Positions 4,050 through 63,635 are shown, counted from the first letter of the stretch. The stretch: 64,000 bases of DNA from Enterobacteria phage vB_EcoM_IME341 (MH051917), one strand, 5' to 3'. The notes: a model not told the origin generated them from the letters alone. Numbers and translations are program-made.

Positions 4050-4873
4050 GTATATTTTCCTACATCAATGAGGCTACTGAAACCACAAAAGGTTCTAAGC
4101 CTACCCGTTCAGAACAACAATGGATAGCTTTAGGTGTTGAATATGCCAAAGCTAAGGCTAAAGGTGTCTCGGCTAAGAAATTCGCTGAAGATAAAGGCAT
4201 TAAGTATTCTAGCTTTACATCTGCGATGTCTCGATACTCGAGTCGAATTAAAACCGCTGTACAGGTTGAAAAGCTTCAGAAGAAACCTGGCAATAAATTA
4301 ACCAAAGCCGAACGTCAATTAATTTTGGTAAACAGTTTTAGAAAGAGTATTCGTGATAAGATTGCTAACGAAGGCGCTGCTGTAAACAATAAATCCGCTA
4401 AATGGTTTACAGAAACATTAAAGAAAGGAATTCGTGGACACCAGGTATCTAAACCACAACCTGGAAAGCTTTATGCTTATATCTATGACGCTAAACACAA
4501 GGATACCCTACCGTACTGGGACAAATATCCTTTAATCATTTATCTTGGGTTAGGTAAGCATAATTTAATGTATGGTCTGAACTTACACTATATCCCACCT
4601 AAAGCACGCCAACAATTTCTAGAAGAATTGCTGAAGCAATACGCGAGTACGCCTACCATTACCAACTCGACTAAATTAAAAATCGATTGGAGTAAGGTAA
4701 AAGGATTCGCTGGTGCAGACGTTATGATTAAGGCTTATATCCCTGGAAATATTAAAGGACCTTTAGTAGAGATAAAACCATCTGATTGGGCTAATGTGGT
4801 CATGATGCCTCTCCAACAGTTCATGTCTAAAGGCAAGCGTTATTCAGCTCAGAAAGTATGGAAGAACTCATAA
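4037..4873 (+). CDS. 2: gp2 DNA end protector protein
   Basis: 278 aa (T4 gp2 about 274 aa), position between genes 4 and 3. Confidence 0.85.
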
Positions 4874-4958: not shown

Positions 4959-5549
4959 ATGAACGGTTTATTTAACCAAACTAACACCACCAACTTTATC
5001 TTAGAGGTTAGTGACTCAGGAATGACCCAGTCATTCAAATTGAACGTACAAGATGTAACACTACCTGGTATCCATATTCCGATCTCAGACGTCCCAGGAT
5101 CGACCCAGGGTATACATCGTGCTAAGCTGCCAGGTTCTACAGTAGAATTCGACCCATTGGTCGTGAACTTTCTTGTAGACCGTGAATTGAAATCATGGCT
5201 TGATGTTTATAAGTGGATGTTGTCATTAAACAACTACGTAACCCACGAATCCGAAGCTTGGCATCCTAAAGGCTTACCTGAAGCAATTACGCTCCATATT
5301 CTTGATAATAACAAACAGAAAATCGTAATGAGCATTCATTACTACGGTGGTTGGCCATCCGACCTATCCGAAATCCAGTACTCATATAAAGAGGATTCCG
5401 ACCCTGCGATAATCGCTACAGCAACATTCAACTTCAAATCGTTTGCTGTAGAAATAGATGGTACAATAGTTACAGGTCGTCCACAAATTGATTCGTATGC
5501 CGAACAACGTGTGGCTCGTATGTCTATGCATCCATCTATGAGAAAATAA
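4959..5549 (+). CDS. 3: gp3 tail completion / sheath stabilizer protein
   Basis: 196 aa ORF between gene 2 and gene 1 as in T4. Confidence 0.7.
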   Translation: MNGLFNQTNTTNFILEVSDSGMTQSFKLNVQDVTLPGIHIPISDVPGSTQGIHRAKLPGSTVEFDPLVVNFLVDRELKSWLDVYKWMLSLNNYVTHESEAWHPKGLPEAITLHILDNNKQKIVMSIHYYGGWPSDLSEIQYSYKEDSDPAIIATATFNFKSFAVEIDGTIVTGRPQIDSYAEQRVARMSMHPSMRK

Positions 5550-6302
5550 TGAAACTAATATCAATTGTAGGAATCAAACGTAGCGGTAAGGATACCGTTG
5601 CTAACTATGTAATCGAAAATATGGATTCGGTAAAATTTCAGCTCGCGGGTCCTATTAAAAAGTATCTGGCTGAAGCCTATGAATACATCTCTGATGACCC
5701 TGTATTCGACCGTAGTTATATGCCTAAACTCGATTTTAACTGTTTTGAAGGTATCGGTTACGACCGCGAAGAAATCCTTCCTTTAAAACCATATGATGTG
5801 ATTGATATCTTTGAAAATGCTATTGTCAAACTGAATAATATCCTTCCTATTCCGGGAATTGATGTTCTTACCGCATATCATTATGGTCTTACCCCAGTCC
5901 AGTATCTGTCTGAAGAAACAAAAGACCAACTGTTTGAAGTAATAAATAAAAATAACAATTGGTCAGTACGTCGTCTCATGCAGACCCTTGGGACCGATAT
6001 TATTGTTAACCAATTTGATAAGATGTATTGGGTTAAGTTGTTCGCTTTAGACTATTTTGATAAAATATACTCTGATGCGAAATACTATGTCGTACCTGAT
6101 GTTCGTCAAACACACGAAATTGATTCGCTCAGAGCGATGGGTGCTACGATTATTCATGTAGTTCGCGCTGAAACCGGTCAAGTACAAGACTCGCACATCA
6201 CTGAAGCGGGTCTACCAATTTTACCTGGTGACGTTGTTGTTGAAAATAACGGCACTCTTTCTGAACTATACACTACTATTGATAAATTATTAGGAAATAA
6301 AA

Positions 6303-6310
<8 letters not shown>
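5549..6310 (+). CDS. 1: gp1 deoxynucleoside monophosphate kinase
   Basis: 253 aa, P-loop IVGIKRSGKDT near N-terminus; T4 gene 1 position upstream of 57A. Confidence 0.85.
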
Positions 6311-7194
<884 letters not shown>

Positions 7195-7205
7195 TTTAAA
7201 AAAGG

Positions 7206-7234
7206 TGTTTACAAGGTCTATAGGCATGATACTA
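7206..7234 (+). promoter_or_regulatory. early promoter cassette (GTTTAC -35, 17-bp spacer, TACTAT -10)
   Basis: gtttacaaggtctataggcatgatactatagacctatcaa; spacer contains inverted repeat aggtctatag/ctatagacct. Confidence 0.6.
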
Positions 7235-7272
7235 TAGACCTATCAAAACAAACTAACCAAACGGAAATCAAA

Positions 7273-7497
7273 ATGAAAACTTATCAAGAATTTATTACCG
7301 AAGCTAAAAAACACGAAGACCAACTGCCGGTTGTTACAAAAACCTTTGACGGTTCATTGGCTGATTTTAAAAAAGTCCCTAGTGATAAGCTCGCTAAATT
7401 GACCGGGAGCATCGGCGAAAAAGACGGCAAGGTCACATTTTCTGCTCAAGGCACCGCTAATCTTAAAAAACTTTTGAAAGCCGCTGGCGCTGAATAA
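7273..7497 (+). CDS. internal protein (IP) with capsid-targeting sequence
   Basis: N-terminus MKTYQEFITEAKK; 74 aa. Confidence 0.7.
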   Translation: MKTYQEFITEAKKHEDQLPVVTKTFDGSLADFKKVPSDKLAKLTGSIGEKDGKVTFSAQGTANLKKLLKAAGAE

Positions 7498-7499
7498 AA

Positions 7500-7772
7500 A
7501 TGAAAACATATCAAGAATTTATCGCTGAATCTATTCTTAATGAAGAAGTAAAAATTAACAAATCTGTTAAGACTATGATTGATAATATAAATCATCTCTA
7601 TAACATCGATTTGACTAATCATGTAACTTTAGGCAATAAGCGAAACTTTTTTGTATTTGATACTTCAGAACTCGACCAGAATCAAATTAACAATATTGAA
7701 CGTTTTGCTAATGAAAAAGGGCTGCGTCACGAAACGGCTGGTTATAAAAAGTATGCAATTTATTTAAAATAA
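7500..7772 (+). CDS. internal protein (IP) with capsid-targeting sequence
   Basis: N-terminus MKTYQEFIAESIL; 90 aa; tandem to previous IP. Confidence 0.7.
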   Translation: MKTYQEFIAESILNEEVKINKSVKTMIDNINHLYNIDLTNHVTLGNKRNFFVFDTSELDQNQINNIERFANEKGLRHETAGYKKYAIYLK

Positions 7773-8712: not shown

Positions 8713-8815
8713 GAATTATGTGATATTATTACTCTATCATTAATACCCTCTATTACCAAAGGTTCTTCCCTCAAAGAATCTTTCATAATAGAATTAATCA
8801 ACTAATGAGGAAAAT

Positions 8816-9235
8816 ATGATTACTCCAATTCTTATCGATTTTAACAGCGAAACCTGGGAAAATCCAGAAATCGCTACAGAAGTATTTTATAACTGCCAAC
8901 CATCTGAAATTAACTATAATTGTTTTGACGGGAATTTAATCCGTATTTGGTTAAAATCTAAAGAACACTCGGCCCATATTGTGGCTACAGTCTGTGATGA
9001 CGAGTTATATGAAATGTGTTCCGGCGTAACAGAATTTGATGCCGATTTAATTGCTGGATGGTTATTCACTGTTTTATTTGAAGATGTTTGGTCACCAGGC
9101 GGTGAACAATTCTGTTTCAGCGAGTTTGGTAAAAAGTTAGGTGTTTTTTCTTCGGATGACACCAATTTTAATATTTCGCCTGATATTTGTGTACACTATG
9201 ATGGCCCTTCCGAAGGTTGGAATTGGTCTAGTTAA
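8816..9235 (+). CDS. hypothetical protein
   Basis: 139 aa ORF with SD GAGGAA upstream. Confidence 0.5.
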   Translation: MITPILIDFNSETWENPEIATEVFYNCQPSEINYNCFDGNLIRIWLKSKEHSAHIVATVCDDELYEMCSGVTEFDADLIAGWLFTVLFEDVWSPGGEQFCFSEFGKKLGVFSSDDTNFNISPDICVHYDGPSEGWNWSS

Positions 9236-9242
9236 GAATTAA

Positions 9243-9319
9243 GGCCCTGTAGCTCAATGGTTAGCAGCAGTCCCCTCATAAGGGAAAGGTTACCAGTTCA
9301 AATCTGGTCTGGGTCACCA
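9243..9319 (+). tRNA. tRNA with CAU anticodon (Met, or Ile2 lysidine-type)
   Basis: GGCCCTG acceptor, D-arm GCTCAATGGTTAGC, anticodon loop CTCATAA, T-arm ACCAG-TTCAAAT-CTGGT, 3' CCA; one acceptor mismatch. Confidence 0.7.
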
Positions 9320-9387
9320 ACTTTGATTAGGTAGAGCAGTCAACTTCTCCATGAATAAATATCTATATAAAATTCATGGAGAAAATT

Positions 9388-10047
9388 ATGCTTTGCCAAT
9401 ATTGTTCTAAAGAATGTAAAAACTTAAATTCACTAAAGCAACATGAAAAACGGTGCAAATCTAACCCAAATGGATTAGATATGAGCGGCCCTAATAACCC
9501 TCGTTTCGGTCTTAAAGGTGTCAATCAATTTACAAAAGCCAAAGAACTAGGTAAAGAAATAAAGGTTTCTGATAAAACCAGAGAAAAACTTAGAAAAGCC
9601 AATACAGGATATGTATGGTCTAATGAACGCAAAGAAGCACATTCTAAAAGAATGCGGCAAGCTGTTCTTGATAATCCTGATTCATATTCTGCTTCTAATG
9701 TTTCTGGTCGAGTAAAAACATATGAGTTTGACGGATTTAAATTTAAAGGGACTTGGGAATTAAAAGTTGCTAAGTTTTTAAAAGAACACAATATCAAATA
9801 TACTAATGAAATAAAGCCAATTCCTTACGAATGGGAAGGTTCAGAACATCTCTATTTTCCTGATTTTTATTTACCCACTTATGATTTTTATATAGAAGTC
9901 AAAGGATATAAAAGAGATAGAGACCTTTGTAAATGGAAAGCTTTAGAAAATTTGATAGTTTTAGAAAAAGATGAGATTTCCGATTTGTCTTGTCTTTTAA
10001 ATAAATTACGTCCCGCTGGTGTAATGGATAGCATACGATCCTTCTAA
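9388..10047 (+). CDS. putative freestanding homing-endonuclease-like protein
   Basis: N-terminal Cys cluster CQYCSKEC...HEKRC, NUMOD-like basic repeats, C-terminal PD-(D/E)xK-like FPDF...YIEVKG; inserted between tRNAs like seg genes in T4; ORF-track start 9376 lies inside a hairpin. Confidence 0.5.
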   Translation: MLCQYCSKECKNLNSLKQHEKRCKSNPNGLDMSGPNNPRFGLKGVNQFTKAKELGKEIKVSDKTREKLRKANTGYVWSNERKEAHSKRMRQAVLDNPDSYSASNVSGRVKTYEFDGFKFKGTWELKVAKFLKEHNIKYTNEIKPIPYEWEGSEHLYFPDFYLPTYDFYIEVKGYKRDRDLCKWKALENLIVLEKDEISDLSCLLNKLRPAGVMDSIRSF

Positions 10048-10084
10048 GTTTGCGGTCCTGGTTCGATCCCAGGGCGGGATACCA
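10010..10084 (+). tRNA. tRNA-Arg (anticodon UCU)
   Basis: Acceptor GTCCCGC/GCGGGAT, T-arm CCTGG-TTCGATC-CCAGG, anticodon loop with TCT, 3' CCA; first ~38 nt overlap the endonuclease ORF 3' end. Confidence 0.75.
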
Positions 10085-10342
10085 AATGAAGACTATTATA
10101 TAGTCAAGCCGTCGTATGAAGACTGATTGCCAGCATTCACCGGCGCAACAAACAAGAAACCGGGTCGCTACCGGTAAGTCGTCGGACTGAAGTTCTCTGG
10201 AGTATAGTTCCTCCCACAGTTGTACTGTGTTCTGGTTCTTTACTATCACAGCTGAAACGGCGCACCGAACACTTGCCTAGCAGGTGGAACCCCGACAAGG
10301 TTGCCGCAAGGCATAGCCCCTTCCGAAAGGTTGGGGCTTTTT
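10085..10342 (+). ncRNA. candidate structured small RNA(s) downstream of tRNAs
   Basis: About 260 nt without ORF, GC-richer than surroundings, ends in strong terminator; T4 encodes stable RNAs C/D of unknown function in its tRNA cluster. Confidence 0.3.
10315..10342 (+). terminator. intrinsic terminator
   Basis: agcccc-ttccgaaaggtt-ggggct followed by TTTTT. Confidence 0.65.
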
Positions 10343-15218: not shown

Positions 15219-15261
15219 AAATACGTGTTACTATTACCCTACACAAACATGAGGAGAACAT

Positions 15262-15501
15262 ATGTGGTATTACGCTCCGATGTCCGATAAGTCTAATGAA
15301 CCGGTACGCATTACTCGTGCCAAGTTTAAAAAGATTTATGGCTTTGCTTATAAGAAGTCTGATTACGGTGTTCGTTTTGAAGATGCTCACTGTATCAATG
15401 ACCCTTATGCAGAAGAAATTTCTAATGAGATAATTCCTATCGTTGAGAGTAATTCCAATGATATGTGGGAATTGCATAACACTTACGTTGCCGAAATTTA
15501 A
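15262..15501 (+). CDS. hypothetical protein
   Basis: 79 aa, SD GAGGAG upstream. Confidence 0.5.
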   Translation: MWYYAPMSDKSNEPVRITRAKFKKIYGFAYKKSDYGVRFEDAHCINDPYAEEISNEIIPIVESNSNDMWELHNTYVAEI

Positions 15502-15520
15502 GTTTACTGAGGAAAATATT

Positions 15521-16480
15521 ATGATGCTAGTTATTGGTTCTCGCGCACTGCACCACGCTGGTCTGATTGAAAATAAGTATATCGAAAATTCTGATTGGGA
15601 TTTCATTGCCGACCAAGGCTCATGGAACCACTTTAAAGCTCGGATGTTCGGCGCCCATGTACACGTTGACAATCCTGATGTTCAGGCTTTCAAATGTATG
15701 CATAATGGTAAAGAAACCTATTTCGAAGCTTATATCGTCCGTGCTCTGACTAACGTACGTGAAATCACTGGTGAGCTCCAAGACGAAGATTTCACCTCAA
15801 GTTATCGTCTCCTGAAATATGCTGAAAATCGTATTAAAAAGGACCGTCTTACAGGTTTCTATTGGGCTACGCCTGATATCTGTCTGGCTATCAAAACCTC
15901 TCATCGTTTCCTGAAGAATAATCCTTTCTTCTTGAAAACTATGTCCCACATCAAATACCTTCGTAATAAAGGTATCACCCTGAATGAAGAACTCCAGGAA
16001 ATTATGCTGCAGCGTCAAAAAGAAACGTTGAGCTATTCCCACCCTAAATTGGATGTAAACAAATCATCGTTCTTTAACGATACCATTTATACGCTAGACC
16101 ACGACTCTATCCATGAAGCCGTGGCATTGGCAGGGCGCCCGGCATATACCTTTTATATGAAGGAAGGTTCTGAAGTCATGACCTCTCGTGAGAAGTTCGA
16201 GGCTTTGCCTGAAGCTATTAAACTGGCTGGTGTATATGAAGAAACTTGTGTCCTGGCACTAGAACGTTCACAGGTTCCTAATGACTTCAATATTTCACCA
16301 TCATTAAGTTTCTATATGGCTCTTGAGAAAGTGTGTACCTCAATCACTTCAGGTTGGTTCCGTGAGTACGCCTGGGAAAACTACCAAGCTGTGGTTAATA
16401 TGTACAAGACTTTAGGTGAAAACGACTACATCAAACGATTCCAAGATAACCATCATTTAATTCGTCCTTTCGAAAAATAA
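15521..16480 (+). CDS. hypothetical protein, possible nucleotidyltransferase-fold N-terminus
   Basis: 320 aa from ATG 15521 (SD GAGGAA); N-terminal GS...DWD resembles a loose Pol-beta NTase motif. Confidence 0.5.
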   Translation: MMLVIGSRALHHAGLIENKYIENSDWDFIADQGSWNHFKARMFGAHVHVDNPDVQAFKCMHNGKETYFEAYIVRALTNVREITGELQDEDFTSSYRLLKYAENRIKKDRLTGFYWATPDICLAIKTSHRFLKNNPFFLKTMSHIKYLRNKGITLNEELQEIMLQRQKETLSYSHPKLDVNKSSFFNDTIYTLDHDSIHEAVALAGRPAYTFYMKEGSEVMTSREKFEALPEAIKLAGVYEETCVLALERSQVPNDFNISPSLSFYMALEKVCTSITSGWFREYAWENYQAVVNMYKTLGENDYIKRFQDNHHLIRPFEK

Positions 16481-51978: not shown

Positions 51979-52112
51979 AAATAATTATTTTATTTCTTAT
52001 AATGGCTGCCTTTACCGTTTATTGGGCAGTGGCAATTCCGCCAATGATTCCGACACTAATCATCGGATGGATTATTCTTATAGCACAAATTAAGTATAAC
52101 TGTTTTAATTGA
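51975..52112 (+). CDS. possible 45-aa membrane peptide
   Basis: MKIIILFLIMAAFTVYWAVAIPPMIP... Confidence 0.35.
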   Translation: MKIIILFLIMAAFTVYWAVAIPPMIPTLIIGWIILIAQIKYNCFN

Positions 52113-52119
52113 GGATATT

Positions 52120-52620
52120 ATGAAAAAGTTAATTATCGCAATGAGTATACTCCTATCAGGTTGCGCGGCCCAATATGGTGATGCAGTTTCAGCCGATGAA
52201 GTTGGTAAAGCTCGTATCGCAGCTGAACAGAAACAATTCGATGGCGAAATGAAATTCCGTGCAGGTTCTGGACTTGTGTATACCCGAGCTAATAATCAAT
52301 GCGGTAATAACTGTGCAAAATATGCTCAAAGGGAAATCGAATTCCAACGTGAACAAGAGTCTAAGCGTGAAGCGGTACTAGCCAAACACCAGGCAGAAAT
52401 GAAGCGCCAAGATGATTTGTACAAAAAGCAGAAACTGTATGCGATGTGCGTAAACCATATCAATCTACAGATTTCTATCCATGAGGCTCGTTATTACGAA
52501 ATGCTCGAAACCGAGAGCTTCGATAAAGCCCGTGATTATAAGAAACAAATCAATAAGCTCAAGACCAAAGTACCGGCGGCAATAGAACAGTGTATTGAAA
52601 TCGGTAAAGATAAGATTTAA
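52120..52620 (+). CDS. predicted lipoprotein
   Basis: Signal peptide with lipobox LLSGC; coiled-coil rest. Confidence 0.55.
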   Translation: MKKLIIAMSILLSGCAAQYGDAVSADEVGKARIAAEQKQFDGEMKFRAGSGLVYTRANNQCGNNCAKYAQREIEFQREQESKREAVLAKHQAEMKRQDDLYKKQKLYAMCVNHINLQISIHEARYYEMLETESFDKARDYKKQINKLKTKVPAAIEQCIEIGKDKI

Positions 52621-52680
52621 GCAATACCAATTTATTAAAAATAGTGTATAATGTACCTACATTCACTTGAGGAACAGATA

Positions 52681-54354
52681 ATGAAAAAGGTTGTTATTTT
52701 AGGCGCAGGTCTTGGCTCACGGTTGTATCCAATTACTAACGAAATCCCGAAGGTATTGGTTAACTACAAACAACATACTGTATTAAAACATTTGTATGAT
52801 TTGTATAGTAACCAATCGGATGAAATTATTCTGGTTATTCACAGCAAATTTAACGACCTCGTTAAAGGCTATATTAAATCCATTAACATGATTAATAGTG
52901 ATAAGCCTAAATTCACTATTCGTAACGTAGATGTGGCTAATGGTTCAGCTCATGCTATTGATTGCATTGCCGAAGATATCATCGGGCACAATGTCTTGTT
53001 TAACTGGTGTGATATTATTCCTGAAGGTTATAAAGTTGAGTGGGATAACGACTATTGCTATACCTACGGGACTGACTGTCGTTTTACATTTGAAGAACCG
53101 TACTTGCGTGAAATTGGTACCGGTGGTGGCGTAGTTGGCTTGTATCAGGTGGCTAATTGGACAGGTTTTAACGGTCTGTATTATGGCGAAGACCTGGCCG
53201 ACAACCTGGATTCAATGGTCCATTTGACCGAACGTAAGCTAGACTTTGTAGTTGATGTCGGTGACAAACTGAAACTGGCTAAGGCCCATGAAGAATCTGA
53301 AATTAACCGTGAATTTAATAAATTAGAGTTCACTGAGAATCTGGCTATTAAAGTACCTACCAACGAATTAGGTAAAGAAATCCAATCTAAAGAAATCAAT
53401 TGGTATAATTCTATTGATTCTGAATTTGTTCCGAGCATTGTAGACTTTGCTCCAGGTGAATTCATTAAAATGGAACGTATCTTTGGTCGTACTATGGCAG
53501 ATGCCTATCGGTTTATGTCTAAAGAAACTAAAGTCCTCATGGTTTATAAGGTCATTAGTGCATTACGTTCATTCGGTGGAACTATCGATAATCCATCCGA
53601 TGAGCAATGGTATTCCGATGTTAAGAAAGAAGTATTGGACAAGGTCCTTATTCGTAATGCTTCTATTGCCGGATTGATTGAAGGCTTTGCTCCACAGGGC
53701 ATTACCCATGTCAATGACTTTAAGGTAGGCGACCCTGAAAAACTTCTTCGCCATGCACTAGAAATTCTGTCTGAACATAAAGAACCGTACCAACTTATTC
53801 ATGGCGACCCGCACTACAGTAATATTATGTTGTCGGACGAAGGTGATATTAAAATCATCGACCCACGTGGTTATTTTGGTAATAGTTCTAAAGGCCCTGC
53901 GATTTATGACGAAGCTAAAGTGCTTTATTCTATCGATGGTTATGACAAATTTAACTCTGACCCTCTATGGGGCGGCTTAACTCGTAACGGAACTCGTGTA
54001 TTCGTTGATATTGAAAAGGTTATGCCTTTAGACGATATTCCGATGTGTACATTTAAGCACAAGCTCTGGATTGCTGTTATCTGGATGGCATTGGCAGGTT
54101 ACTTTAAAAATAACCCTCTGAAAGCTCTGGGTGCTTATTACAACGGGTTGTACCAACTGAGTGTGCTGCTTAAGCGGCATCCTCGTAAGCGTAAGCTTAT
54201 CACAGGTGAATTTGTCGATGAAGTTCGTGACCCTATCACGGCTCAAATTATCACTCGTTGTCCTGATAAGTGGGTTTTGCTTGACCAAGAAACTGGTGTA
54301 AAATATAAACCTACAGGTTCTACTGAACTCCACAAACAATGGAAGAAAATTTAA
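52681..54354 (+). CDS. bifunctional sugar-1-phosphate nucleotidyltransferase / APH-fold kinase
   Basis: N-terminal NTP-transferase motif ILGAGLGSRLYP; C-terminal kinase motifs LIHGDPHYSNIML and IDPRGYFG (Brenner / DFG-like); 557 aa. Confidence 0.65.
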   Translation: MKKVVILGAGLGSRLYPITNEIPKVLVNYKQHTVLKHLYDLYSNQSDEIILVIHSKFNDLVKGYIKSINMINSDKPKFTIRNVDVANGSAHAIDCIAEDIIGHNVLFNWCDIIPEGYKVEWDNDYCYTYGTDCRFTFEEPYLREIGTGGGVVGLYQVANWTGFNGLYYGEDLADNLDSMVHLTERKLDFVVDVGDKLKLAKAHEESEINREFNKLEFTENLAIKVPTNELGKEIQSKEINWYNSIDSEFVPSIVDFAPGEFIKMERIFGRTMADAYRFMSKETKVLMVYKVISALRSFGGTIDNPSDEQWYSDVKKEVLDKVLIRNASIAGLIEGFAPQGITHVNDFKVGDPEKLLRHALEILSEHKEPYQLIHGDPHYSNIMLSDEGDIKIIDPRGYFGNSSKGPAIYDEAKVLYSIDGYDKFNSDPLWGGLTRNGTRVFVDIEKVMPLDDIPMCTFKHKLWIAVIWMALAGYFKNNPLKALGAYYNGLYQLSVLLKRHPRKRKLITGEFVDEVRDPITAQIITRCPDKWVLLDQETGVKYKPTGSTELHKQWKKI

Positions 54355-54713
54355 TGCATCTGTGTTTTGATATCGATAACACAATCACGGTTTGGAACCA
54401 CGACCGTGATTATGAAAACTTTAAACCGGACACCGAAATGGTGTCCATGATTAATAAGCTTTATGACGAAGGTTATGAGATTACACTGTTCACTGCTCGT
54501 GGCATGACTTCATGTGGACCCGGTCGAATCTTGGTTGAAGTAGTTCCTGCATTGGTTAAGAACCTTGAAAAGATTGGATTGAAATATCATAATCTGCTTA
54601 CACACAAGCCGAGTTATACTTTTATCATCGATGACCGAGCAATCCGTCCTGACCACTTTAAAGAAATGGTTCGTGAAGGAACTCTTGAAACCTATAAGGC
54701 ATATCATCCGTGA
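54354..54713 (+). CDS. HAD-superfamily phosphatase
   Basis: Motif I FDIDNTIT (DxDxT), motif II TLFTARG, motif III K...IIDD; 119 aa. Confidence 0.65.
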   Translation: MHLCFDIDNTITVWNHDRDYENFKPDTEMVSMINKLYDEGYEITLFTARGMTSCGPGRILVEVVPALVKNLEKIGLKYHNLLTHKPSYTFIIDDRAIRPDHFKEMVREGTLETYKAYHP

Positions 54714-55246
54714 AACCAAAAATCATTGTTATCGACGGCCCGGATAATTCCGGGAAGTCTACTTTAATTGAATCACTTTTATCTGATAAGAAATATCGTC
54801 TTATTGATTTTCCTAAAAAGATTAATGGCAAATGCATTTCATTAGGGACTGATAATGACAAGGCTTTAGTCGAGACGTTGTATAAGTTTTTAGACCCTAA
54901 TTTCGTTTACATCCTCGACCGTGGTTATCCAAGTAATATAGTTTACTCAGGATTCCTTCGTGGTGAAATGGACCCTTATGTGGAACTAGCAGATTGGATT
55001 GATTTCAAAAAAGAATTCAATATCATTGAGATTATTTTAACCCGTAATCCGTTGGATAAAGACTTTGAAGATGACCTCATTAAACTGACTAAAGATGAGT
55101 TCAACTTAACTATTCAGAAATATGAAGACTGTTTTAAAAATGTTTTTAAAGTTTTAAACCATGACGGACATAATAACTTGCTTAACGTCGATATGGTAGA
55201 ATTAAAACGTCTGAATGAATATATTGAAAATAAGGTGAATAAATGA
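54710..55246 (+). CDS. P-loop nucleoside/nucleotide kinase-like protein
   Basis: Walker A IDGPDNSGKST in a 178-aa protein (dNK/TMK-like size). Confidence 0.55.
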   Translation: MKPKIIVIDGPDNSGKSTLIESLLSDKKYRLIDFPKKINGKCISLGTDNDKALVETLYKFLDPNFVYILDRGYPSNIVYSGFLRGEMDPYVELADWIDFKKEFNIIEIILTRNPLDKDFEDDLIKLTKDEFNLTIQKYEDCFKNVFKVLNHDGHNNLLNVDMVELKRLNEYIENKVNK

Positions 55247-55941
55247 AACACATTACCGCTGTTAGTTTTGAAAACGCGTTTAAGCAAATGAACGAAGAAA
55301 TCCTGGAAGCTCCACAGTTTGCAGTTGATTCTCGTATCGGCCGTTGTTATGAAATTGGTTCTGCTTCGGTAGAAGTACTGGATGCAAGCACTTACAAATT
55401 CACCGATCCCCGCATTAATCGTATCAACTATGATTATGCCGAATCTTTCTGGAAATTTATGATTTCTGGTGGTACTGATGCCGCCGAAGCATTTAAGGAA
55501 TATCCTAATGTTGCTAAGTTCATTGATAAGCCGAAAAGTGACGTATTGCCTGCAAACTTCAACACTTTCTATGGACCTCGAATTGTGGCCCAACTCCCAG
55601 CCCTACTTAAAGAGCTTAAAGAAAAGCCTAACTCGCGAAGAGTTGTGTTCCAGATTCTCCAAGAACAAGACCAAGCCCTCCTTGATTCTGACGAATCCTT
55701 AGAATATCCGTGTACCGATTCGGTAACATATTATATTCGTGATGGACGTCTGTATGCACACACTCATATGCGTTCACAGAACTGTGCTATCGTTATGCAG
55801 CTGGATTTCTATCTGCAGGGTAAACTGATGGCCTTTATTGCTGAACAGTGTGGTGTTGGTCTGGGTACGTATTCCCATACTATGGTTAGTGCACATGTAT
55901 TTGAACGTGATTTTGACTACGTTCGAGGATTCCTGAAATGA
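55243..55941 (+). CDS. thymidylate-synthase-superfamily pyrimidine hydroxymethylase (divergent gp42-like)
   Basis: Recalled TS/dCH motifs: NSRR, catalytic PC (EYPCTDSVTYYIRDG), HMRSQN, Asp at specificity position, HVFERDF. Confidence 0.6.
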   Translation: MKHITAVSFENAFKQMNEEILEAPQFAVDSRIGRCYEIGSASVEVLDASTYKFTDPRINRINYDYAESFWKFMISGGTDAAEAFKEYPNVAKFIDKPKSDVLPANFNTFYGPRIVAQLPALLKELKEKPNSRRVVFQILQEQDQALLDSDESLEYPCTDSVTYYIRDGRLYAHTHMRSQNCAIVMQLDFYLQGKLMAFIAEQCGVGLGTYSHTMVSAHVFERDFDYVRGFLK

Positions 55942-56831
55942 GTCTGTTTATCGTTCCTATTTTCAGTATGCGTAGTTACGAAACAGGTGAATATGCCGTC
56001 CTTAAGGACGGTAATTTTCAACTCCATTTAAACCGTGCTTGCCCAGGTGATTATCTGGCTTATCCTAGAAATTCGAGCGATATCAAAGAATGTATTGAAT
56101 TGTTTCCTGAACTGAATTTTGTACCGCTTTGGTATAAAGAAAATGCTTATGAAACCCGTAAACATTTTTGGTCTGAAAATGAGTTCGTTGTTGATTCGCT
56201 AATCGAATACTATGACTGCTCAGGATTAGTAACCGATATCACAGGTTATGATGGTGCTCAGACAGTACAATTCAACTTTAACATTACAATGGACCCTGAA
56301 GTTCCTCGTTATTATATTGATGAGTTCATTGATATCGATGTGTCTTCGGTTGAACGTTCGATTTATACTACAGTCCTTAACCAATGCCAGAAAGACGTCC
56401 TGGTGTCACGAGGTGCGTCCTCTGATAAGATTTTTGTAGACCAAAAGGTAATTAATCCTGCAATAATTGAGCGTTACTCTGAAGGTCTAGCGCCTATTAA
56501 AATTGATGGTATTTTCCATCCATTCCGTATCTCTGATAAATGCTATCAATTCGAAAGAGTTGTAGACCAAGCTGCGGCTGAAGGTTCTCGTCTTTACATC
56601 ACCGATCCGAATGATTCATTTAAGCGTGAAGACTATCGTCCTGATGTAGAGATTATTAAATTCAAACCGAGTAAGGTTGAATATTATCAGATTCTGAAAT
56701 CAAGACCTCATATCATTTATCATGAGAATCCTGGTTTAGTATTCCATCCTGGTCTAGCTGAATTCATTTATTTCGGTGCCCATATCCATTCTGAGTACGA
56801 AATGCCGAGTTATGAGGACGTAGTATGCTAG
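55938..56831 (+). CDS. hypothetical protein in the position of T4 beta-glucosyltransferase
   Basis: 297 aa; no motif recognised by eye. Confidence 0.5.
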   Translation: MSLFIVPIFSMRSYETGEYAVLKDGNFQLHLNRACPGDYLAYPRNSSDIKECIELFPELNFVPLWYKENAYETRKHFWSENEFVVDSLIEYYDCSGLVTDITGYDGAQTVQFNFNITMDPEVPRYYIDEFIDIDVSSVERSIYTTVLNQCQKDVLVSRGASSDKIFVDQKVINPAIIERYSEGLAPIKIDGIFHPFRISDKCYQFERVVDQAAAEGSRLYITDPNDSFKREDYRPDVEIIKFKPSKVEYYQILKSRPHIIYHENPGLVFHPGLAEFIYFGAHIHSEYEMPSYEDVVC

Positions 56832-56956
56832 GTCCTTTATTGCTTTTTATAGGTTTGTTATTATTCTCTTTCGGAGCCTTGTTATTATTATGCTGGCTCG
56901 AGAAACGAGAAGTCCGGAAGATAGTCGATAAGGCTATCAACCGAGGAATAAAATAA
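56825..56956 (+). CDS. possible 43-aa membrane peptide
   Basis: MLGPLLLFIGLLLFSFGALLLLCW... Confidence 0.3.
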   Translation: MLGPLLLFIGLLLFSFGALLLLCWLEKREVRKIVDKAINRGIK

Positions 56957-63554: not shown

Positions 63555-63635
63555 GTTATCCTCCTGTTAAATTATTATTTATTCGCTTTAATTTAACAGT
63601 TTATAATTATCTAACTTATTAATGAATTGAAAAAG

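Follow-up and report, generated by a model that had tools for sequence, protein, structure and literature searches.

A Five-Gene Operon between imm and uvsX of Enterobacteria Phage vB_EcoM_IME341: A Probable Dhakavirus Version of the Arabinosyl-5-Hydroxycytosine DNA Hypermodification Pathway

Introduction

Which DNA modification is encoded by the enzyme genes that Enterobacteria phage vB_EcoM_IME341 (MH051917) carries between imm and uvsX, at the position held in T4 by gene 42 and beta-gt? In the stretch of 64,000 nucleotides analysed here, called the window, this slot contains a run of five overlapping open reading frames (ORFs) on the + strand (52681-56831; Table 1), which an initial annotation had read as a non-T4 hypermodification cluster; an arabinosyl pathway was raised there and left undecided. 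The comparison with characterized systems supports the former reading and points to the latter pathway: all five proteins are full-length orthologues, at 37-79% identity, of the cytosine-arabinosylation proteins of phage RB69, which identifies the cluster as the RB69 pathway, and the operon very probably represents, in Dhakavirus form, the arabinosyl-5-hydroxycytosine (ara-5hoC) hypermodification pathway of RB69, HY126, and DLP3.

The pathway is already known, three groups having described it in 2025-2026 (Mahler et al. Cell Host Microbe 2025; He et al. Nat Chem Biol 2026; Lee et al. NAR 2026) with Dhakaviruses listed as carriers, so that the present finding re-discovers known biology; in particular, these viruses are named among the clades with a syntenic cluster (Lee et al., PMC13326640), and RB69 and JS98 had been flagged jointly as possessing gene 42 and 56 homologues and no glucosyltransferase (Petrov et al. 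2010). In the following, orthology, active-site signature, GT-B fold, and gene content derive from this analysis, while the enzyme chemistry is taken from the literature on the orthologues.

Organization of the Operon

All five enzyme ORFs of the initial annotation were found in place, with the motifs GLGSRL, DIDNT, and a P-loop. The junctions between successive genes consist of a 16-nt overlap followed by GTGA, ATGA, and ATGA, and these overlaps, together with the GAGGA site before ATG 52681, indicate that the five genes form a single translationally coupled operon; an alternative in-frame start of the first gene, ATG at 52651, would give a product of 567 amino acids (aa). A chance run of ORFs is ruled out, the genes being conserved in hundreds of phages. 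The cluster is 93-97% identical to those of the Dhakaviruses IME08, JS98, JS10, KIT01, and QL01 (megablast), and all five proteins fall in phage families of PHROGs, two of which are labelled "unknown function", while none of the five reaches any NCBIfam family cut-off.

Table 1. Coordinates of the operon and of related genes in the window
Feature	Position	Strand	Remarks
Nucleotidyltransferase (NTase) and kinase fusion	52681..54354	+	557 aa; GAGGA ribosome-binding site 7 nt ahead of ATG 52681
Small HAD-superfamily phosphatase, AfhF-like	54339..54713	+	124 aa; RB69 gp51 orthologue
Tmk-like P-loop nucleotide kinase	54710..55246	+	178 aa; RB69 gp45 orthologue
Thymidylate-synthase-superfamily 5-hydroxy-dCMP synthase (predicted)	55243..55941	+	232 aa; RB69 gp48 orthologue
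Compact GT-B glycosyltransferase, candidate base-proximal DNA arabinosyltransferase	55938..56831	+	297 aa; RB69 gp47:46 orthologue
43-aa hydrophobic ORF	56825..56956	+	Overlaps glycosyltransferase stop (ATGCTAG); pathway membership uncertain
Gene 1 deoxynucleoside monophosphate (dNMP) kinase	5549..6310	+	Corresponds to IME08 gene 1 "deoxynucleoside monophosphate kinase" (window and IME08 colinear, 97% identity)
Gene 56 dCTPase/dUTPase, N-terminal ~117 codons	63646..64000	+	Aligns with IME08 gp56; cut by window end

The cluster of RB69 and HY126 (Mosigvirus; gp45-gp55 and gp3, the "Afh" genes) lies in the same slot, from the DNA polymerase gene to uvsX, and comprises the same five enzyme types. 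The two arrangements differ in that the Tmk-like gene stands beside uvsX in RB69 and between the HAD and thymidylate synthase (TS) homologue genes here; moreover, RB69 has gp55, gp50, gp49, and gp3, all four of which are missing from the window, where imm and a lipoprotein gene are located upstream. A similar arrangement is that of the Klebsiella phage vB_KpnM_Biddle_MM4, which shows the same order of fusion, HAD, Tmk-like, TS, and glycosyltransferase genes and no isomerase, with protein identities of 80, 85, 81, 86, and 69%, respectively; this phage differs in that its Tmk-like and TS genes flank a retained U32 gene and in that a 146-aa ORF precedes uvsX. This relatedness (69-86%) places the fusion enzyme and the Tmk-like kinase of the Dhakaviruses in a sub-lineage apart from that of RB69.

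The TS Homologue and the Modified Base

The protein encoded by the fourth gene matches the Pfam family Thymidylat_synt (PF00303) with 52.6 bits (cut-off 24.3), and was aligned with E. coli ThyA, RB69 gp48, T4 gp42, and the IME08 td product (E. coli ThyA numbering). Cys146 is kept in an invariant column, L143E (SLEYPC) and N177D (MQLDF) are present, and position 169 is Asn both in the window protein and in RB69 gp48 (RSQN), whereas it is Asp in ThyA (RSCD), T4 gp42 (RSND), and IME08 td (RSVD). RB69 and HY126 carry the same D169N/L143E/N177D signature, and D169N is the published diagnostic of 5-hydroxy-dCMP synthases, accompanied by N177D, which is related to dCMP specificity, and by L143D/E; in fact, nine of nine additional D169N homologues assayed by Lee et al. 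gave 5-hydroxy-deoxycytidine (5hodC; PMC13326640).

The identity of the TS homologue is 79% to RB69 gp48 and 25%, over 159 aa, to T4 gp42. Among PDB sequences, 9iqu/9iqc/9ir2 are the best matches (E 1.5e-125, 79% identity), followed by MilA (E 2.5e-14) and T4 gp42 (1b49, E 4.7e-6). The entry 9iqu is identical to RB69 gp48 at 228 of 231 positions, and 9iqz, a neighbour of the 9iqu series, is labelled "phage HY126 glycosyltransferase"; from this label and this match, the 9iq series presumably derives from the HY126 study (He et al.).

RB69 gp48 and DLP3 gp80 are flavin-associated 5-hydroxy-dCMP (5hodCMP) synthases (PMC13326640), the formation of 5hodCMP by RB69 gp48 having been established by liquid chromatography-mass spectrometry (LC-MS), an authentic standard, and 18O2 labelling (PMC13326640), and the HY126 enzyme was likewise shown to form 5hodCMP with flavin and O2. 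In the DNA of RB69 and DLP3, the arabinose is ether-linked straight to the C5 of cytosine, as determined by LC-MS, nuclear magnetic resonance, and 18O2 labelling (Lee et al. NAR 2026, PMC13326640); 5-O-pentosyl-dC has an m/z of 376 in the data on these two phages. The TS homologue is thus predicted, from the D169N signature and the 79% identity to the verified RB69 gp48, to be a 5-hydroxy-dCMP synthase, that is, a cytosine C5 hydroxylase and not a T4-type hydroxymethylase, and the predicted base is 5-hydroxycytosine (5hoC) with the sugar ether-linked at C5. In comparison, T4 gene 42 encodes a folate hydroxymethylase, while the enzyme predicted here is a flavin/O2 hydroxylase, so no methylene bridge would be introduced.

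The initial annotation had regarded this protein as a divergent TS-family hydroxymethylase, and the DNA as hydroxymethyl-pyrimidine with a decoration other than glucose. The assignment to the TS family agrees with the Pfam score and the non-glucose decoration agrees with the arabinosyl-type pathway, whereas the hydroxymethyl part does not hold, D169N, L143E, and N177D marking a 5-hydroxy-dCMP synthase and the predicted base being 5-hydroxycytosine. A divergent dCMP/dUMP hydroxymethylase, leading to DNA with a non-glucose-decorated hydroxymethyl-pyrimidine such as arabinosyl-hydroxymethylcytosine (ara-hmC), would be in keeping with the membership in the TS superfamily, with L143D/E and N177D being common to T4 gp42, with the annotation of the orthologue as dCMP hydroxymethylase in several GenBank records, and with the first report on RB69, which described ara-hmC (Thomas et al. 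2018). It is nevertheless very improbable, in that gp42 keeps D169, the similarity to gp42 is far below that to RB69 gp48, which makes 5hodCMP, and the ara-hmC assignment of RB69 has since been revised by three groups; a T4-like hydroxymethylase was rejected on account of D169N.

Sugar Activation by the Fusion Enzyme and the HAD Phosphatase

The fusion enzyme is made up of an N-terminal NTase of ~215 aa and a C-terminal APH/choline-kinase-fold kinase of ~340 aa. Both domains, as described in the initial annotation, score above the Pfam cut-offs (NTP_transferase at aa 3-100, 34.3 bits, cut-off 21.2; APH at aa 346-417, 25.9 bits, cut-off 23.2), the match to phrog_4098 is full-length (E 5e-268), and the motifs GLGSRL (aa 10), HGDPHYSN (aa 374), and IIDPR are intact. 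The protein is colinear with RB69 gp53 (43% identity) and gp52 (41%), which are one gene split through a sequencing error (PMC6024577), and the full-length homology of IME08 gp43 to RB69 ORF053c had been pointed out earlier (Thomas et al. 2018). Searches of PDB sequences with the fusion enzyme, the Tmk-like kinase, and the 297-aa protein did not reveal a close solved relative, the matches being limited to YorR and remote NTases.

The HAD protein is 63% identical to RB69 gp51 and to PDB 9iqw (E 7.8e-54 for the latter), conserves motifs I and IV (DIDNT and IIDD), and also matches the capsule-biosynthesis phosphatase family TIGR01689 (E 1e-14). In HY126, AfhE, the fusion enzyme, phosphorylates D-arabinose-5-phosphate (arabinose-5-P) to arabinofuranose-1,5-bisphosphate, the HAD phosphatase AfhF removes the 5-phosphate, and the NTase domain of AfhE then makes UDP-arabinofuranose (He et al. 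2026, as reported by Lee et al., PMC13326640). By orthology, the fusion of the window is probably an AfhE-like sugar-phosphate kinase/sugar-1-phosphate nucleotidyltransferase, presumably specific for D-arabinose-5-P and UTP, and the HAD protein is predicted to strip the 5-phosphate from arabinofuranose-1,5-bisphosphate. The scheme of the initial annotation, in which a kinase, a nucleotidyltransferase, and a phosphatase build an NDP-sugar, matches this route in outline; its description as salvage-type fits less well, since the HY126 route starts from a sugar phosphate, arabinose-5-P, and not from a free sugar, and the order of the steps differs. T4 differs in a further respect: it relies on host UDP-glucose as sugar donor, while the donor would here be built by the phage itself.

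The sugar genes could alternatively constitute an auxiliary envelope module for capsule or lipopolysaccharide (LPS), with the TS homologue alone acting on nucleotides. The best non-phage family matches are in fact TIGR01689, MurU/GlmU-type nucleotidyltransferases, and LPS/teichoic-type GT4 enzymes, and the HAD gene is called "phosphoheptose isomerase" by both PHROG and GenBank. This possibility is scarcely credible in view of the translational coupling of the sugar genes to the TS homologue inside the replication block from gene 43 to uvsX, which corresponds to the 42/beta-gt position of T4, of the HY126 orthologues, which make UDP-arabinose for DNA, and of the co-occurrence of the cluster with a D169N synthase across 349 phage records; operon coupling and orthology likewise speak against a cell-envelope moron.

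The 297-aa Glycosyltransferase

The last enzyme of the operon does not match any Pfam family, and the comparison with the glycosyltransferases of arabinosyl phages that the initial annotation had proposed gave 70% identity to RB69 gp47 and 65% to gp46, which are one gene. Its homologues (n=117) are nearly all unnamed and include those of Serratia phage 92A1, Acj9, Acj61, AbTZA1, and Ac42, and the protein is found in 349 phage records (tblastn). An AlphaFold2 model built on a 42-sequence alignment is very confident (pLDDT, the predicted local distance difference test, 94.8; pTM, the predicted template modelling score, 0.90) and has the GT-B fold; its structural matches are sucrose-phosphate synthase 6kih (17.6), BshA (16.9), PimA (15.9), the HY126 glycosyltransferase 9iqz (14.1), and T4 alpha-GT (13.4). 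The top match, 6kih, is the same as that reported for RB69 gp46:47. The gene follows directly that of the 5hodCMP synthase (ATGA overlap), an adjacency shared with RB69 and the Klebsiella phage. On these grounds, the 297-aa protein is a candidate base-proximal DNA arabinosyltransferase of the RB69 gp46:47/DLP3 gp79 type, which would transfer arabinofuranose from UDP-arabinofuranose to 5hoC.

The Tmk-Like Kinase

The product of the third gene carries a GPDNSGKS P-loop and a DRG motif and matches phrog_761 "thymidylate kinase" (E 4e-40); its identity is 37% to RB69 gp45 and 81% to the homologue of the Klebsiella phage. In Rhizobium phage RL38J1, a hexose user, a Tmk-like kinase adjoins a TS homologue and a glycosyltransferase, an arrangement suggesting a place for this kinase in the base module and not in the sugar module; it may contribute to the phosphorylation of the modified nucleotide. 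The RB69 gp1 homologue phosphorylates 5hodCMP (PMC13326640).

Genes Absent with Respect to RB69

The arabinose-5-P isomerase of RB69, gp55, is matched by tblastn neither within the window, searched at E<=0.01, nor in IME08, whose genome was searched at E<=1. Among phage records, the tblastn tallies are 276 for the isomerase and 349 for the glycosyltransferase; the isomerase tally comprises ~40 fewer Escherichia records, and Klebsiella, which accounts for 26 records of the glycosyltransferase, is outside the ten most frequent organism names of the isomerase tally. Both E. coli and Klebsiella produce arabinose-5-P through KdsD/GutQ for the synthesis of Kdo (3-deoxy-D-manno-octulosonic acid). As the phage isomerase is missing, the substrate arabinose-5-P is presumably supplied by the host KdsD/GutQ.

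Likewise, RB69 gp50 (U32 family) and gp49 are found by tblastn neither in the window nor in the whole 172-kb IME08 genome, and the search for a second arabinosyltransferase of the RB69 gp3 type yields, in the window and IME08, no match below E ~1; the IME08 slot between rIIA.1 and gene 39 is without an annotated gene and lies outside the 64-kb window. T4 alpha-gt and beta-gt, whose absence from the window had been noticed in the initial annotation, show no sequence similarity there, the tblastn search against the window and IME08 giving only noise (E at least 0.02), and no glycosyltransferase was detected when nine further large, uncharacterised ORFs of the window were scanned with Pfam. Since only one glycosyltransferase is present, as in the Shewanella phage Thanatos, mono-arabinosyl-5hoC is expected, and the DNA would carry a single arabinose per modified base. 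Thanatos, which infects a different host and is only distantly related within the Straboviridae, has a single arabinosyltransferase syntenic with a TS homologue, its D169N synthase was shown to give 5hodC, and its DNA is mono-arabinosylated; the DNA of RB69, in contrast, contains both mono- and di-arabinosyl 5hoC, while only the mono-arabinosyl form is predicted here.

The U32 "peptidase"-family gene is present in RB69 as gp50 (6493-7662 of the compared segment) and in the Klebsiella phage (5084-6244), with 89% identity between the two. The U32-family proteins RlhA and TrhP are needed for the formation of 5-hydroxycytidine and 5-hydroxyuridine in E. coli RNA, and a role of the phage U32 protein as a hydroxylation-related helper is conceivable; its absence here makes it dispensable.

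A 5hoC base bearing a sugar other than arabinose, such as one obtained by converting host ribose-5-phosphate into UDP-ribofuranose, would account for the far stronger divergence from RB69 of the fusion enzyme (41-43%) and the Tmk-like kinase (37%) in comparison with the TS, HAD, and glycosyltransferase proteins (63-79%), for the grouping of the former two at ~80% with the enzymes of the isomerase-less Klebsiella clusters, and for the lack of an isomerase in the window and in IME08. Such a non-arabinose pentosyl-5hoC is distinctly unlikely, since the host arabinose-5-P made by KdsD/GutQ renders a phage isomerase dispensable, the arabinose enzymes are closely matched by the glycosyltransferase (65-70%) and the phosphatase (63%), and the Dhakavirus cluster is classed as arabinosylation by Lee et al. 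There is an outside chance that the minimal cluster adds a single pentose which is not D-arabinofuranose, or that it gives strictly mono-arabinosyl-5hoC in complete dependence on host KdsD/GutQ; in that event, the phage would evade defences in a pattern of its own and depend on host metabolism in a way that RB69 does not.

Proposed Pathway

In the proposed ara-5hoC pathway, the base module would start with the gp56 dCTPase, which would remove dCTP by turning it into dCMP; the TS homologue would then hydroxylate dCMP at C5 in a flavin- and O2-dependent reaction. The gp1 dNMP kinase (from 5hodCMP to 5hodCDP), possibly with the Tmk-like kinase, and the host NDP kinase would yield 5hodCTP, which the phage polymerase would use instead of dCTP. 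The presence of gp56, stated in the initial annotation, is confirmed for the part of the gene lying inside the window (Table 1). In the sugar module, the kinase domain of the fusion would phosphorylate host-derived D-arabinose-5-P at C1, the HAD phosphatase would take off the 5-phosphate, and the nucleotidyltransferase domain would generate UDP-arabinofuranose. The 297-aa GT-B enzyme would finally move the arabinofuranose onto the 5-hydroxyl, giving mono-arabinosyl-5hoC, a modification that would protect against restriction and CRISPR nucleases and allow the DNA of the phage to be told apart from that of the host.

Several points weigh against this assignment. The fusion enzyme and the Tmk-like kinase are only 41-43% and 37% identical, respectively, to the RB69/HY126 enzymes and share a separate lineage with the isomerase-less Klebsiella phages, so that the substrates of both are deduced rather than directly transferable. 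The lack of a second transferase relies on IME08 and on searches at the sequence level, which are blind to a very divergent GT-B enzyme, and on a window of 64 kb. The first arabosyl transfer, which may take place at either the nucleotide or the DNA level, could not be reconstituted in vitro for DLP3 or RB69 (Lee et al.). Finally, a nucleoside analysis of a Dhakavirus virion was not found in the literature outside the two studies of He et al. and Mahler et al.; on the DNA chemistry of Dhakavirus/JS98 or the Klebsiella relatives, the literature search gave statements of gene content only.

Significance and Annotation

JS98-like coliphages are common in phage-therapy cocktails, and an arabosylated 5hoC in place of glucosyl-hydroxymethylcytosine would predict which restriction, type IV, and CRISPR defences are evaded or triggered; it would also explain the resistance of the DNA to many restriction enzymes and sequencing chemistries. 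The five-gene version would represent the smallest natural gene set of the pathway, for which neither a phage isomerase nor a U32-like protein nor a second transferase would be required. The GenBank/RefSeq labels of the cluster are misleading, the HAD protein being called "phosphoheptose isomerase", the synthase "thymidylate synthase" or "dCMP hydroxymethylase", and the glycosyltransferase "hypothetical"; the feature names of the cluster further include, for some entries, "RNA polymerase binding protein" or "capsid and scaffold protein". Orthology corrects these widespread labels, including "thymidylate kinase".

Genomic Neighbourhood

The operon is preceded by gene 43, imm (PF14373, E 7.8e-18), and a gene for a 166-aa lipoprotein, and is followed by uvsX, gene 40, and gene 41. 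The content of the slot given in the initial annotation is therefore to be completed: besides the five enzymes, the interval between imm and uvsX holds the lipoprotein gene (52120-52620), the enzyme genes extend to 56831, and the end set at 56956 is the stop of a 43-aa ORF which had not been mentioned; in addition, T4 carries segA in this slot and not only gene 42 and beta-gt. The scan of 51.6-57.2 kb for promoters and terminators does not inform on the operon boundaries, the 20 promoter-like sites not exceeding the 17.7 of shuffled sequence and the single weak terminator being on the wrong strand. The window as a whole is colinear with IME08 from 78427 to 14892, with 84-99.6% identity per aligned block (mostly >=94%).

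The translation of the 43-aa ORF, MLGPLLLFIGLLLFSFGALLLLCWLEKREVRKIVDKAINRGIK, has a hydrophobic N-terminus and a basic C-terminus and may correspond to a small membrane protein. The ORF is intact, with one substitution, in IME08, where it is not annotated, and the megablast matches of the KIT01/QL01 type end directly ahead of it, at query 4222-4225 (window ~56824).

The predicted 166-aa lipoprotein, encoded on the + strand between imm and the operon, belongs to phrog_1754 (unknown function) and has a signal peptide ending in LSGC, with a weak resemblance to the Cor superinfection-exclusion proteins; it may represent a second superinfection-exclusion factor. In T4, imm.1 is on the opposite side of imm with respect to the lipoprotein gene here. 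Between imm and the lipoprotein gene, a short ORF (52002-52109, +) shows 56% identity over 36 aa to RB69 gp54, which is annotated as "similar to T4 42-imm intercistronic region", and a conserved micro-ORF thus appears to accompany the locus.

Two further differences from IME08 lie outside the slot. Gene 56 and the primase gene are separated by just ~50 bp in the window (63582-63634), in comparison with 15241-15922 of IME08, which contains the HNH homing-endonuclease gene mobE, so this mobile element is absent from the present phage. Conversely, a segment of 1.35 kb beside the tRNA region (8797-10149) is without an IME08 counterpart; its 223-aa ORF (9376-10047, +) weakly resembles Phage_endo_I (E 2.6e-5, short of the cut-off), and the segment probably arose by insertion of a nuclease or mobile gene.

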